Of a stretch of DNA of 64,000 nucleotides, positions 10,416 through 15,918 are shown piece after piece. Each line of letters starts with the position of its first letter. Positions within the stretch are counted from its first letter, which is position 1. Under the pieces are notes generated by a model. That model saw only the letters and a list, made by a program, of their open reading frames with translations. It did no database searches and was not told the DNA's origin. Both the position numbers and the translations under genes were made by a program. Source of the stretch: a virus (taxonomy: Duplodnaviria; Caudoviricetes); the IMG/VR virus record IMGVR_UViG_3300027776_000009; one strand, 5' to 3'.

Positions 10416-12806
10416 TTATTGCGGGTAAATGAGTTGACTCAGGCTGACGGTGAAGTCTTGAGCCTGATCAATGGCGTTGGTCATGCTGCGTACATCGTTT
10501 AGCAGTTTGGCACCGCCTTCCGATATTTCTACCAAGGTGTTGAGCAACTTGGTGACACGCTCATAAAAAAGCGCTGTATCCCTCGCGTCTACTGAAGAGA
10601 CGGGCGTTGTCTCCAGATGTTCCAGTAGCGTCTTGAATTGGGGGAGAGTAGCGATCAAGAGCTGCTTTGCTTCTGCGGCCGTGGTCAAGTAGGTTGCAAT
10701 CGGATCTCTGGCGTGACTCAGTCCCCGATAGGAAGCGGAGTTACTTACCTCAGCGTTATCATGCGTGTATCGAGCGCTTTTGACCAACTTATAAATACGA
10801 CTAGGATACGGACCGCCTCCCGCTTCACCGATATCAGTCAGGTCCAGATTATCGGGAGTCGCCAAGGGGTTGGCTTGAGTGCAGATGTATCGAAACTGAT
10901 CTGTCATCCGTTGCACACTGGAGTCTTTATCTTGATAACAGGCAACGCTACCTGCTTCGGCTACAGTCACTGCAGCATTCATCAAACGAGGAAGAGCTTC
11001 GACCAGCGTGTTACTAATGCGGGTCATGATTCCTAATCGCAAAATGGAAGACTCTGTGTTGAACACCATATCGGTTAGTGATGAGCCTTGCTTGAGTTGT
11101 TGGAGCTCAACCGCGTTAAGATAATCGCCTGTGGTGTAGAAATACGCGGCCAGGTTTTCGGAGGAACTCAGAATCGCTTCGATCTCAGAACCGGGAACCT
11201 CTAAACGTTCCAATTCTTTACGACAAGTCGACAGAATAAGATGAGGTTGAGAGGCTGCTGCCGGAGACACGGTCTCCAACATTTTTCGACCGGAGGCTGG
11301 GATCTGCTGCCGTGCTTCGGCTTCACGCTGAATAAGGCGAGAGAGGGCTTCTTGTGCAAGGCTCCCGGACCCTCCTTGCTCACTACGATGGGTTTGACCA
11401 ATGCGTGTCAACACGCTGATCAGATGATCAACAGCGAGTGCGTCGGGTTGAACAGGAAGCATCTTATCCTCCTCCATCGAAGCATACATGGCCGACACCG
11501 CAAACGCGCGATTAGCACCCAGCTCATTCAAGGTGCGCTGAAGGGCAACTTGTCCGTTGTACTTGCGGATACTGGGCTTGATCTGAGCAATCCATTTCAA
11601 CAGATTCGGGTAGGCTCTGGCGCCCGCGAGCATTCGATCAATGTATTCAATATCGCGCAGCGTTTTCCGACGCATCTCTATCGAGATTTTCGGTTCGCGT
11701 AGTCTCAGATACATCTCTCGTCGGATGAGCATCAATCGATCGATCGGGGGGTCGTAACGACTCTGATCGGGTTTTTCTGTAAGAAGACTCCAAAGAACCA
11801 GCATGGGAATCCCGATAACAGACATAGTGCACAGGGCTGCACCAACGACAGTCTTCAATACTTCCGAGGTCAAATACTCACGGTCCTTACCAAGATCTGC
11901 GGCACCATAGAAAGCAGATATCATAGCCGCCCCGCCGCCGTGGCGAACCATGAATTGATCAGCGATTTGCTCAGCAACGCGTTCATCGTAAAGATCCATC
12001 CCAAGTTCTGAAGTGATGCTGCGGCGGGCTTCCGTCAGCATCACCACTTGGTAATTAACCCCCTCAGCGCCAGGTTCTGATTTGGCTAACGATGCGACAT
12101 CAAGTTTTGTATCCCCCAAATCAACCGCATATTTGAGGACCTGCGTGCGTTCGTTGTAGTTATCAATGTTAGCCGCGGTTCGTGCAATTTGTGACAGCAT
12201 CAATGACCGTCTGACAACATACGCCATATAGACCATAGCGGTGTACAGATGACCAAGTTCGTGAAGAATGGTATCCGCTATGACTTCCTCTGCACTGTAC
12301 TCAGATGTCGGCCGCTTTGTTAGAAGACCTATCGTTATCAGGAATGGGAATTCCAGTCGACTGTAGAGCCCACTAACCTTAGATTTCCCCAGATCAATAC
12401 CTGCGGTAAACTCCTCCTTGTAATCCCGGACAATGTTCCCTAAGGCGGCTTGATCATAGAAGTCATACCCTTCATCTTTTTTCGGATCCAGGGTCTTGCT
12501 TAAGATATTGTTTTTACCCAGCCAGACAAAGGACACCGCGGCATTAGGGATCAAGTTATTCTCAATACCGAACTTGACCAGGATTCCGGTCTCGTCCAGA
12601 ATGAACTTCGACAGAGGGCTTTTCTCAAAGGCTTGATCCGTAAACTCACCCTTGGTAAGAAGTTGCCCGATAATCTTTACAAGCCCATCACGGAACGAGC
12701 CGTCCTGAAACGCGATAGTCTCCATCGAGGGAGTCAGCTCTCGGGGGAGGAGCTGCGTAAGGGAGTGCCGCATGAGGGATTCTCCGAATAAAGGGGTGTT
12801 AAGCAC
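10416..12806 (-). CDS. Head protein (phiKZ gp84-like) with zincin HExxH motif
   Basis: SMETIAFQ cleavage site, LHELGH, EQIADQF, hydrophobic segment, internal SME. Confidence 0.65.
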   Translation of the reverse strand: MLNTPLFGESLMRHSLTQLLPRELTPSMETIAFQDGSFRDGLVKIIGQLLTKGEFTDQAFEKSPLSKFILDETGILVKFGIENNLIPNAAVSFVWLGKNNILSKTLDPKKDEGYDFYDQAALGNIVRDYKEEFTAGIDLGKSKVSGLYSRLEFPFLITIGLLTKRPTSEYSAEEVIADTILHELGHLYTAMVYMAYVVRRSLMLSQIARTAANIDNYNERTQVLKYAVDLGDTKLDVASLAKSEPGAEGVNYQVVMLTEARRSITSELGMDLYDERVAEQIADQFMVRHGGGAAMISAFYGAADLGKDREYLTSEVLKTVVGAALCTMSVIGIPMLVLWSLLTEKPDQSRYDPPIDRLMLIRREMYLRLREPKISIEMRRKTLRDIEYIDRMLAGARAYPNLLKWIAQIKPSIRKYNGQVALQRTLNELGANRAFAVSAMYASMEEDKMLPVQPDALAVDHLISVLTRIGQTHRSEQGGSGSLAQEALSRLIQREAEARQQIPASGRKMLETVSPAAASQPHLILSTCRKELERLEVPGSEIEAILSSSENLAAYFYTTGDYLNAVELQQLKQGSSLTDMVFNTESSILRLGIMTRISNTLVEALPRLMNAAVTVAEAGSVACYQDKDSSVQRMTDQFRYICTQANPLATPDNLDLTDIGEAGGGPYPSRIYKLVKSARYTHDNAEVSNSASYRGLSHARDPIATYLTTAAEAKQLLIATLPQFKTLLEHLETTPVSSVDARDTALFYERVTKLLNTLVEISEGGAKLLNDVRSMTNAIDQAQDFTVSLSQLIYPQ

Positions 12807-12886: not shown

Positions 12887-14353
12887 ATGACCACAGTGAC
12901 TTATACGAAAGAAGATGTTGTTGGTTACGACTGCCGACACGTCTTTTATTGCCCGCATCCGAACGGCATTGACGACATGCACCTGGTTAAGGAATACGTT
13001 CATCTGAAAGACAGACCTCCGGTAATCAACATGCGCTTACTGAAGAACTTCCAACAACCCTTTTGGGTCACTCGGGAAGGCTATCGTAACCATCATGAAA
13101 AGAAGGAGTGGGAAGCACTGGATAAACTGCAAGAGTATAAAAGTAATCGCGCTGGTCAATTGAACGCGATCAGTCGCGCCGTGAGTGGTAAACCCTTGGG
13201 TAAGCGCGGGCAATTGCGGGAGTTGGCAAAGACACCGTATCTCTACGGATGCGATATCCTGAGCACCTGCCTGATCAAACACGAGTACCAAACACGGTGG
13301 CCGGATCTCATTGCACCGAGCGCCTCTGTCGCTGTGTTCGATATCGAAACGGATGTGAACACTGGTACGAACGATGTCATCATCTGTACCTTGAGTTTTA
13401 AGAACCGTGTATTTACAGCCGTCAGTGAGCGGTTCTTAACGCCTGGTAGGAACGAGGAAATCATTCGTAAACTGGCGGACACCCACATTGGTGAACTGAT
13501 CAAGAAGCGCGGGATACAGCTTGAGCTAGCCTGGTTCAAGGATGGCGCAGACTGTGTTGAGGCTTGCATCCGTAAAGGACATGAGTACAAACCGGACTTC
13601 ATCGAGATCTGGAATATTGACTTCGATATTCCTAAATGTATCGAAGTCTTGAAGAATGCTGGGAAGGATCTGGCGGATATCTTCAGTGACCCAATAGTTC
13701 CTAAGGCGTACCAGTACTTCAAATACATCCAGGGACCTAAACAGAAGGTCATTCAGGATGGTACAAAGCGCCCTCTTCACCCAGCAGACCAGTGGCATCG
13801 GGTTGAGTGCCCCGCGAGTTTCTACTTCTTGGACGGTATGTGCGTCTACAAGCGCCTGCGGATCGCAAAAGGGATGGAACCCGGCTATGGATTGGATGCA
13901 GTCTTAGCACGCAATGGGTTGATGGGAAAACTCTCGTTACCCGAAGTGGACCATCTGAATGGTTTAGCATGGCATAAGACCATGCAGCGTGATCATCCAT
14001 GCTTCTACGTGGTTTATAACATCTACGACTGCGTGGGTGTGGAGCTCTTGGATGAGAAGATCGGCGACATCAGTAGTCGCTTCCCCGTACTGTGCGGCGT
14101 AACGGACTACAGCAACTTTACGAAGAACCCGCGCCGGATTTGCGACAGTTTACACTTTTTCTTAAGAGACAAGTATGGGTTGATTATCGCAACAACGGGA
14201 GACGACGGGAAAACGAATACGGACAGTGAGGAACTGGTGGGGATGCGAGGCTGGATCGCTACGCTAGACGCTACGTTAGTAGTGGATAACGGAGTGCCGG
14301 TATTTAGTGACCTTAGAACGATCCGGTCTATGATTCGCAGATATTTAGCTGAT
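12887..14353 (+). CDS. Split DNA polymerase B, exonuclease subunit (phiKZ gp82-like), exon 1
   Basis: Exo motifs FDIETD, WNIDFDI, YNIYD; ends YLAD at the 5' splice site. Confidence 0.85.
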
Positions 14354-14366
14354 TAACAAATGTCGT

Positions 14367-14398
14367 GTACTTATGATATGAAATAAGATCATAGGTGT
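14367..14398 (+). promoter_or_regulatory. RBS-sequestering hairpin with TATG motifs upstream of the homing endonuclease
   Basis: GTACTTATGAT pairs with ATCATAGGTGT covering AGGTG; TATG at 14372 and 14377. Confidence 0.55.
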
Positions 14399-14402
14399 TA
14401 TC

Positions 14403-15254
14403 ATGACTGTAGAACGATTTCTACCCTTTTGCGGTAGACGCTATTGGATCGATGATTCCGGCGTTGTCTATAGCGCTAATGGAGTGATCGAGGTTGTTGA
14501 TATAGATGAGATGCCTCATGTTGAGCTCGAATGGGTCCTCGGAAGGGAACTTTATCCGGTGGGTCTGATCATTATTGTTTGTTTTCACGGGCTCTTTCTT
14601 CCGGATTATTTCTGGTTGAAATTGATTCCAATGAAGATAAACGATAGTGAACAATGGGTTCCTGACAACGTGGTTTATCGTTTTGATGAACCGATTGAGG
14701 TTGAAGATTTTCCTGGATATTTTTACGTTCCGTTTTTTACGCGTTATGCCATTTCAAAATCTGGCCAATTAATAAACGCTGATAGCGGAACGAGGATGAC
14801 GTGGTATGTATCAAAACCGAATGAAACCAAAGGGTCGGCGGGTGGATACCACAGTGCTAGAGTTGTCCGAGGTGATGGAAGAACGGCGATGTTATTTAGA
14901 CATCGTGCGCTCTGTCTAACCTTTAAAAAGTATCCTTCAAAGGTAAAATCCATGGTCGTTAACCATCTGGATGGTAATCAGCGAAATGATTCGTTGGAAA
15001 ATCTTGAATGGGTAACGTACAAAATCAACAACCAACACGCCTACGATAACGGTCTAAGACCTAATGCAAGTACTCCTATCCTCGTTAAAGATTTAACGAC
15101 TGGAGAGATACGTAGGTTTCCAACCATAGCAGAATGTGCTAGAACTTATCCGATGTTGACACCATGGACGATTTCGTACAGGTTAAGGAAAACATGTAGT
15201 CGGGAGTTTTCGGACAATTTGCGCCTGAAGTACGATGATGGTACTGATTGGTGA
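14403..15254 (+). CDS. HNH homing endonuclease (intron-encoded)
   Basis: HRAL...VNHLDGNQRNDSLENLEWVTYKINNQHAY; C-terminal NUMOD1-like RFPTIAECAR; visibly AT-richer than flanks. Confidence 0.9.
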   Translation: MTVERFLPFCGRRYWIDDSGVVYSANGVIEVVDIDEMPHVELEWVLGRELYPVGLIIIVCFHGLFLPDYFWLKLIPMKINDSEQWVPDNVVYRFDEPIEVEDFPGYFYVPFFTRYAISKSGQLINADSGTRMTWYVSKPNETKGSAGGYHSARVVRGDGRTAMLFRHRALCLTFKKYPSKVKSMVVNHLDGNQRNDSLENLEWVTYKINNQHAYDNGLRPNASTPILVKDLTTGEIRRFPTIAECARTYPMLTPWTISYRLRKTCSREFSDNLRLKYDDGTDW

Positions 15255-15672
15255 TCGTTCTGTAGTTATGCATGACTAAGGTCCGCTCCTCCAGTAATGG
15301 ATGAGCTGAAACCCAACCTAATAGCTGGTACGTGCTAAAGCTCTCTCACCAAAACGGATCGCGAAAGCGAAAACGGCAACGGTGTCGAAAGACAGAAAAA
15401 ACGAGAGAGATTCCCTATTGCTGAGAGGCTGTCGGGAGATGCAATGTACTATCAGCAGCGAAGCCTCTAAACTTTCATAAGAAGCATGAGGTATGCTCAA
15501 CGACTAACCCTTTAGCAAGGTGTAGGCTAGCAAGTGCGGCCGAAACGGTGGGACCCGACCGCTGCGTCACAAGCGCAGGCGAGGGTTTGATATAGTCTGT
15601 TCGTCCGGAGAAAGACCGGAGCTAGGCAGGTAAAGCTGCGGGTAGGATTAACGACCCTACTGAACATAAAAG

Positions 15673-15918
15673 CTTGACATCGAAGGGACCTATCCAACTG
15701 AAGAGGTAGTCATGAATCTCTCAAAGGAAACGACCGCGATTGAAGTGATTCGTATTGAGGGGCTATCGGAAAAGGCACAGCGACGTATTGGGATCAATAT
15801 GACGGGTGGTGTGGCTAACGCTATTGAGCTGTGTTCCGAAATCTACGACCTCCCCTCGCCTGAGGAATGGGTAGACATGTGGGACGCAGAGCAAGAGGCA
15901 AAAAAAGAAAGGATATAA
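15673..15918 (+). CDS. Split DNA polymerase B exonuclease subunit, exon 2
   Basis: LDIEGTYPTEEVVMNLSKETT, PolB motif A equivalent; 13 codons upstream of and in frame with ORF 15712..15918. Confidence 0.85.
   Translation, partial: LDIEGTYPTEEVVMNLSKETTAIEVIRIEGLSEKAQRRIGINMTGGVANAIELCSEIYDLPSPEEWVDMWDAEQEAKKERI

Follow-up and report, generated by a model that had tools for sequence, protein, structure and literature searches.

A phiKZ-like nucleus-forming phage (IMG/VR virus record IMGVR_UViG_3300027776_000009) very probably carries a mobile group I intron of subgroup IA in its DNAP-N gene, which would be removed by splicing and which contains an open reading frame (ORF) for an HNH endonuclease. 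Chimalliviruses have a family-B DNA polymerase in two pieces, of which DNAP-N is the N-terminal subunit (bioRxiv 10.64898/2026.10.01.755736). The window, by which we mean the whole stretch of 64,000 nucleotides that was analysed, contains one copy of DNAP-N, and an insertion of 1,319 nt (14354-15672, + strand) interrupts it. The boundaries of the insertion, its covarying RNA fold, the protein families of the gene and of the ORF, and an intronless allele of the gene are established. The intron is a further case of an already known type and the same site is known in phage Goslar. The interrupted gene is made up as follows.

12887-14353, + strand: DNAP-N exon 1, 489 codons, C-terminus ...RRYLAD; PHROG 3011 positions 3-494 (E 4e-158)
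14354-15672, + strand: group I intron, opening with UAA (an in-frame stop), last base G
15673-15918, + strand: DNAP-N exon 2 including the stop codon (coding 15673-15915), 81 codons; PHROG 3011 positions 495-572
15676-15678 and 15691-15696, + strand: exon 2 codons of D491 and of Y496 and P497, respectively; exon 2 starts with L490, its N-terminus LDIEGTYP being in frame

Read across the insert, the sequence is ...TTAGCTGAT/TAACAAATGTCG...ACATAAAAG/CTTGACATCGAAGGGACCTATCCA, where the slashes stand after 14353 and after 15672. The matches of the two exons to the PHROG 3011 DNA polymerase profile (576 positions) meet at 494/495 with zero gap and zero overlap, and combined they span positions 3-572. 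An intronless metagenomic allele from the ENA metagenomes (P0001, 570 aa = 489 + 81) has the same layout as the joined exons, from which it differs by 7 substitutions and no indel; its residues 1-489 are 97.8% identical to the exon 1 protein. The DNA of this allele (L005) reads TTAGCTGAT/CTTGACATAGAAGG across the insertion site and differs from the window at 50 of 1,467 positions in exon 1 and at 8 of 246 positions in exon 2, which makes it 96.6% identical. Because the joined exons correspond to the uninterrupted allele without an indel, the boundaries are fixed at GCTGAT/CTTGAC, and alternative boundaries do not yield the allele. The 58 nucleotide differences to L005 cause just 7 amino acid changes, indicating that the exons are under purifying selection as a single reading frame. 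A preliminary description of this DNA had proposed a group I intron with exactly these ends, whose removal gives YLAD-LDIEGTYP in frame, and both proposals are borne out by the abutting profile matches and the intronless allele, together with the RNA evidence given below.

Comparing the window with L005, we saw no co-conversion tract or divergence spike near the site, the difference of about 3% being the same at the junction as elsewhere. Two other kinds of insertion were considered and rejected: an intein because the intron opens with an in-frame stop codon (UAA) and the ORF is separate, and a group II intron because there is no reverse-transcriptase-like ORF and the RNA fits the group I model.

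The gene belongs to the phiKZ gp082 / Goslar gp068 type (PHROG 3011), so that the split DNA polymerase of the preliminary description is the DNAP-N subunit. P0001 as a single query had no match in Pfam or PDB and a profile from 54 homologs was required, in which D489, D491, Y496 and P497 are invariant. This profile finds the RB69 DNA polymerase with E 0.0024, and in motif A the alignment places vaDlDvegtYP opposite VMSFD411LTSLYPS of RB69, a local segment that is not significant alone. The alignment with D411 and the invariance in the family identify D491, encoded by codon 2 of exon 2, as the likely catalytic Asp of motif A. The intron thus appears to lie one codon upstream of the catalytic Asp, at the edge of motif A. 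The neighbouring genes, split multisubunit RNAP subunits and conserved unknowns, are typical for phiKZ-like phages, and all of the GenBank phage matches (290 of 290) come from phiKZ-type jumbo phages, with identities of 60% at most. As megablast against GenBank phages gave no match and the GenBank identities do not exceed 60%, the window represents an unsequenced chimallivirus lineage.

The ribozyme core of the insertion consists of the following elements.

15284-15308, + strand: P2 hairpin, loop GUAA; covariation in 7 of 9 pairs
15312-15318, + strand: P3 5' strand, paired with 15547-15552; A15316 bulged
15324-28 / 15452-56, + strand: P4 (RNAalifold, covariation model)
15333-35 / 15446-48, + strand: P5 (RNAalifold, covariation model)
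15341-15437, + strand: P5 extension of about 100 nt with three GNRA-capped hairpins
15457-15497, + strand: P6 / P6a (covariation model)
15502-15506, + strand: P7 5' strand GACUA, paired with UAGUC at 15593-15597; inside the classic R element CAACGACUA
15507-15523 and 15525-15541, + strand: P7.1 and P7.2, between P7 and P3'
15547-15552, + strand: P3 3' strand, partner of 15312-15318
15553-15586, + strand: P8; 7 covarying pairs, outer part
15593-15597, + strand: P7 3' strand, inside the S element GAUAUAGUC
15604-20 / 15626-39 / 15641-61, + strand: P9 / P9.1 / P9.2 (RNAalifold, covariation model)
15672, + strand: omega G and 3' splice site, last intron base, fixed by L005

A search of the window with Rfam at the gathering threshold gave no match, and a permissive search was needed to find the group I intron model (RF00028), which matches 15264-15618 over its full length. 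A check with group I models had been suggested earlier: the full-model match supports the intron, while the score of 26.2 bits (with E 3e-4 for the local search and 0.013 for the whole window) does not reach the gathering score of 50 bits, a curated cutoff and not a structural criterion. The permissive search found no second group I match in the 64 kb. Related introns score 71.7 (PhiPA3 gp085), 67.8 (PhiPA3 gp210), 44.7 (Goslar), 44.6 (L018) and 23.5 bits (L009), and we attribute the low score in the window to large insertions (P5) and not to a missing core. Furthermore, the P6-P7.1 region is similar to the PhiPA3 gp210 intron by blastn (71% identity, E 0.01).

The core was aligned in four sequences, the window and the same-site metagenomic introns L008, L009 and L011. 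Their RNAalifold consensus contains P2, P4-P6, P7, P7.1/P7.2, P8 and P9-P9.2. A model of 91 pairs, which includes the P7 pseudoknot, has 97.8% of its cells paired, and in 41 of the 91 pairs both partners are changed. Not one of the five measures was matched by any of the 500 shuffles, and the pairing in slid controls was 31-37%. In the window copy all 91 modelled pairs are standard. In all four sequences P3 consists of six standard pairs, whose letters differ, P7.1 is invariant and carries zero covariation information, and P7.2 has one covarying pair. The RNA therefore has the P3-P9 core that is conserved in group I introns, including the R and S elements and the pseudoknot of P3 and P7. In 1990 Michel and Westhof reportedly took P7.1 and P7.2 between P7 and P3' as the mark of subgroup IA, to which this arrangement assigns the intron.

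Upstream of the core, the insertion contains the endonuclease ORF and the elements that would bring the 5' splice site to its guide.

14351-14354, + strand: P1 5' strand, G14351 A14352 U14353 / U14354, spanning the 5' splice site
14362-14369, + strand: P1a 5' strand GUCGUGUA, 8-bp complement of 15269-15276
14391-14395, + strand: Shine-Dalgarno-like AGGUG, 7 nt upstream of the ORF start, in a local hairpin
14403-15254, + strand: ORF of the HNH homing endonuclease (283 aa), looped out by P1a and lying 5' of the core
15269-15276, + strand: P1a 3' strand UGCAUGAC, partner of 14362-14369
15280-15283, + strand: internal guide sequence G-GUC; C15283, U15282, G15281 and G15280 pair with 14351-14354

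P1 is formed by the exon GAU and the guide GUC with a U14353-G15281 wobble at the splice site, a pairing of just 3-4 bp. We compared eight introns at the same site (the window, Goslar, L008, L009, L011, L012, L013 and L014). All eight follow an exon that ends in GAU, start with U(A/G)A and end in G, and in every one of them a GUC directly adjoins P2 on its 5' side. This includes the ORF-less L009, where no additional GUC is found from the splice site to P2. P1 reaches six bp in L013 and L014 (exon GGUGAU with GUCACC) and is GGAU with GUCC in Goslar. L016, which belongs to the same ribozyme lineage and lies in a DnaB-like helicase gene, follows an exon ending in GCU and has GGC at the guide position, which would be the covariation expected of a guide; it is a single sequence, since GAU/GUC is invariant in the polymerase introns. 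Together, the GUC adjoining P2 in all eight introns and the covariation in L016 point to G15281 U15282 C15283 as the guide. P10 pairing is not claimed here, being 3 bp in the window (CUU/AAG), 2 bp in Goslar and none in L008, L009 and L013.

The P1a stem encloses the loop that holds the endonuclease gene. Equivalent stems of 5-9 bp, with differing sequences, are present in all six ORF-bearing introns, begin 6-9 nt into the intron and finish 0-6 nt before the guide (combined p = 1.7e-4 against shuffles, computed after the stem was noticed and with several of the sequences related). Such a stem is kept with other sequences in L008, Goslar, L012, L021, L022, L016 and L018. In the close relatives L021 and L022 the distal strand is CACGGC and ACACGAC, respectively, as against CAUGAC in the window, with an unchanged proximal strand and the pairing kept. 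The stem explains how a P1 of 3-4 bp can form across about 900 nt.

The ORF had been described before as lying 5' of the group I core, and this is the case, as it ends at 15254 and the RF00028 match starts at 15264. Its product matches Pfam HNH_3 with 29.6 bits (cutoff 24.8) as well as phrog_59, and I-HmuI (1U3E) with E 5.9e-6; residues 115-218 retain NH.DGN...N...W.T.KIN with the His and Asn of the HNH motif. The protein is 48% identical to that of L008, 36% to Goslar gp069 and 33% to PhiPA3 gp210, and over its entire length it can be aligned to residues 1 to ~290 of the L008 protein, which has 447 aa. One NUMOD-like repeat (residues ~226-265) is aligned to the relatives, with no Pfam NUMOD match, and the protein lacks the 110-160 residues with which most relatives continue at the C-terminus, which may reduce the affinity for the target. 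L021 encodes a second 283-aa form, which is 75% identical. In L022 the exons (95-98%) and the ribozyme (95.4%) are nearly identical to those of the window, whereas its 436-aa ORF is just 67% identical in DNA, so the ORF evolves or is exchanged independently of the ribozyme. We also considered a hairpin that sequesters the ribosome-binding site and start of the ORF, and rejected it with z -0.94 against shuffles and no conservation in L008.

Among the best 120 DNAP-N homologs, 93 are intact across motif A, 14 end exactly at the intron site of the window, six end two codons later (..ADLD), five end ~33 codons upstream and two fall under other cases. PhiPA3 gp085 belongs to the ..ADLD class, with the intron after the catalytic Asp codon. 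Introns lacking an ORF are L009, L011 and that of PhiPA3 gp085. Neither the PhiPA3 paper (PMC11620839) nor a 2025 review of nucleus-forming phages was found to describe introns in DNA polymerase genes.

Some T4-like phages have genes that are split by endonuclease insertions, and DNAP-N might likewise be split by a free-standing HNH gene, its two pieces being translated separately and assembling afterwards. The polymerase of this phage group is already multi-subunit (bioRxiv 10.64898/2026.10.01.755736), an in-frame AUG at 15712 is preceded by GAGG, and ONT cDNA of phiKZ gave no evidence of splicing of the predicted introns of this phage under the conditions used (PMC10914365). However, this first start in exon 2 is 13 codons past the junction, and a protein starting there would lose D491, Y496 and P497, even though the omitted codons are intact and carry only a synonymous change compared with the intronless allele. 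A split without splicing would also leave ~400 nt of conserved, covarying ribozyme without a role, and in L009, L011 and PhiPA3 gp085 the ribozyme occurs alone, at the same site or 6 nt downstream. We consider such a split highly improbable. A different question within the spliced intron is its guide, for which the preliminary description left two candidates, AAGGTC at 15278 and GTCG at 14362. If the proximal GUCG were the guide, P1 would be a local hairpin UGAU/UAACAAAU-GUCG with the ORF between P1 and P2. This pairing is possible across the 8-nt loop, four of the eight same-site introns have a GUC near the splice site, and PhiPA3 gp085 has a compact P1 of such a kind. The GUC of that compact P1 is, however, the one adjoining P2; a proximal GUC is absent from L009, L013 and L014, as opposed to the GUC directly 5' of P2 in each of the eight; and the segment at 14362 is better paired with 15269-15276, a pairing that is kept in L021 and L022 via changes of the distal strand. 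A proximal guide is thus improbable. The candidate at 15278 contains the guide GUC (15281-15283) and the one at 14362 is a strand of P1a, so the two were not alternatives.

Losing the homing endonuclease is part of the expected life cycle of introns, and it is possible, if rather doubtful, that the ribozyme splices while the 283-aa protein no longer recognises its homing site, which would leave vertical inheritance only. The missing C-terminal 110-160 residues comprise further NUMOD-type modules and are present in 41 of 55 relatives, with proteins of at least 400 aa, and ORF-less relatives exist (L009, L011 and PhiPA3 gp085). Against decay, the ORF is open, the His and Asn of the HNH motif are kept in the alignment with I-HmuI, and one NUMOD-like repeat is retained, as in the 174-aa I-HmuI. 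The 75%-identical 283-aa protein of L021 moreover means that the short form persisted through divergence.

We favour a mobile intron that is spliced and probably encodes a working nuclease, and propose the following course of events. The gene for DNAP-N, the subunit with the exonuclease and motif A, would be transcribed through the intron. P1a would bring the splice site and the guide together across ~900 nt with the endonuclease gene looped out, so that the exon end GAU (14351-14353) could pair with the guide GUC (15281-15283), with a wobble pair of U and G at the splice site. Guanosine-initiated splicing would then excise the 1,319 nt and join GCUGAU to CUUGAC, and the product ...YLAD-LDIEGTYP... 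of 570 residues would regain the catalytic Asp491. Translation of unspliced RNA would stop at the first intron codon (UAA) and give an inactive fragment of 489 residues. Polymerase function would hence require splicing, as had been proposed before, judging from this stop codon and the position of D491, Y496 and P497 in exon 2. The I-HmuI-like protein most likely nicks the intron-less DNAP-N of co-infecting relatives near TTAGCTGAT/CTTGACATAGAAGG, which could lead to homing or to damage of the competitor. An attack of the nuclease on intronless alleles of relatives is plausible by analogy with PhiPA3 gp210, and an intronless allele with 96.6% identity exists.

A more far-reaching reading, which we put forward tentatively and regard as unlikely, is that one ribozyme lineage, with a P7/P7.1 signature, a 3-nt guide and the P1a clamp, might have repeatedly colonised GAU Asp codons where several chimallivirus polymerases have their catalytic motifs (two sites in DNAP-N with a distance of 6 nt, one in RNAP beta and one in the NADFDGD motif of RNAP beta'), plus a helicase gene with a changed guide. 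The fast-exchanging HNH genes, the 283-aa form included, might then be inter-phage weapons that stop intron-less relatives from replicating their DNA, comparable to the effect of PhiPA3 gp210 on the virion RNAP.

For annotation, the intron means that DNAP-N would be called truncated here and in about one fifth of the closest relatives; here the annotated protein would have 489 residues and no catalytic Asp, and the true product 570. Structure predictions and expression constructs of chimallivirus polymerases need the spliced sequence, as was also found in the Goslar preprint. A replication gene now joins the chimallivirus genes known to carry mobile introns. Moreover, the intron-plus and intron-minus alleles form a natural pair with 96.6% identity that can be used for the question of the competitive advantage of the nuclease, and P1a indicates how a very short guide can work across a 900-nt ORF insertion. 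The current understanding of group I introns is unchanged.

The closest known system is gp068/gp069 of Escherichia phage vB_EcoM_Goslar (NC_048170), where the intron interrupts DNAP-N at the same phosphodiester, between the ..AD Asp codon and LD..YP. The gp068 exons are 79690-81186 and 82949-83203, and the exon coordinates given in the methods of the preprint (bioRxiv 10.64898/2026.10.01.755736) agree with our reading. This intron is unannotated in GenBank and recorded solely in the methods of that 2026 preprint. It shares the UAAC start, the G end, the guide GUC by P2, the P1a stem and the position of the HNH ORF 5' of the core with the intron in the window. Unlike the latter, it is 1,762 nt long, has a 396-403-aa ORF with NUMOD1 and has larger peripheral RNA insertions, and its exons are distant from those of the window (38% over exon 2). 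PhiPA3 gp085 also has the intron in the DNAP-N gene, with the same ribozyme type and the P1 GAU/GUC, but the site is 6 nt downstream (..ADLD/IVSTYP), and the intron has 344 nt, no ORF and a compact P1 with a 9-nt loop; it is likewise unannotated in GenBank.

The PhiPA3 gp210 intron belongs to the same ribozyme family as that of the window and resembles it in the blastn-similar part of the core, the guide GUC after a GAU Asp codon and the HNH ORF 5' of the core, the two proteins being 33% identical. It differs in its smaller ribozyme, in its RF00028 score of 67.8 bits, which is above the gathering score, and in its location in the virion RNAP beta gene (gp211/gp209). The earlier association of phiKZ-type introns with nvRNAP genes does not hold for this intron. 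For gp210, nicking of the intron-minus site and harm to a competing phage have been shown (Birkholz et al. 2024, PMC11620839); for the HNH protein in the window, nicking is predicted. Another example of a group I intron with a nicking HNH endonuclease in a phage DNA polymerase gene is found in the Bacillus phages SPO1/SP82 (I-HmuI, I-HmuII) and Bastille (I-BasI). Their polymerases belong to family A and their hosts are Gram positive, unlike the family-B case in the window. They are the classic case of an ORF that diverges faster than its ribozyme, according to the literature cited in PMC11620839, and the window and L022 show the same pattern.

Comparison of the window intron (14354-15672) with its counterpart in L022, a JGI contig from a close relative, gave 95.4% identity in the ribozyme and 95-98% in the exons. 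The HNH ORF of L022 encodes 436 aa and its DNA is just 67% identical to the window ORF. Judged by these sequence identities, ribozyme and ORF form a mosaic within the intron.

Besides its distal partner at 15271-15276, the GUCGUG at window positions 14362-14367 can pair locally with the same hexamer, CAUGAC, at 14402-14407, where it overlaps the start codon of the endonuclease ORF. This alternative pairing could serve to switch the RNA between translation of the endonuclease and splicing. In the window, the local fold showed no improvement over shuffled sequences (z -0.94), and it is not kept in L008, a relative with an intron at the same site.

Related insertions:

L016 (IMG/VR contig), 11590-11995: intron of the same ribozyme lineage in a DnaB-type helicase-like gene
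L018, 8600-9200, and L017 (IMG/VR contigs): ORF-less intron, apparently in an RNAP beta'-like gene
L020, 3178-3521 (NC_028999, reverse strand of 70877-78062): PhiPA3 gp085 intron, an ORF-less group I intron of 344 nt

The host gene in L016 looks like a DnaB-type helicase, with the motifs judged by eye. Its intron has the guide GGC with the exon end GCU, and the P1a stem consists of 7 bp, GUGUAUC with GAUACAC. The ORF-less intron of L018 and L017 belongs to the same ribozyme lineage, with which it has an identical 25-nt P7/P7.1 word in common, and appears to interrupt an RNAP beta'-like gene, identified as such from the motif alone, as ..LGAD|NDGDM... The insertion point would be within the NADFDGD-type catalytic motif and, as in the DNA polymerase introns, the intron follows a GAU codon and has the guide GUC.

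Five DNAP-N homologs (P0006, P0058, P0059, P0099 and P0101) terminate roughly 33 codons short of motif A, each behind a conserved GW[IM] motif, which suggests a third intron site within the DNAP-N gene. The gene that follows DNAP-N exon 2 in a related phage (L013, 6899-7255) has a Pfam Acb2/Tad1 hairpin domain, of the anti-CBASS / anti-Thoeris sponge family.

L015 (4977-5397) has an intron at the downstream DNAP-N site (..ADLD|). Its last base is apparently U and not G, provided that the product must agree with intronless relatives (..ADLD-IVSTYP..); candidate explanations are an error in the assembly, decay of the intron and an unusual 3' splice site.

The annotated DNAP-N of PhiPA3, gp085, ends with ..ADLD*, followed by the 344-nt intron (Rfam 71.7 bits) and then by an unannotated exon 2, which reads IVSTYPNV... 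The PhiPA3 intron is located immediately 3' of the catalytic Asp codon, 6 nt downstream of the window site.
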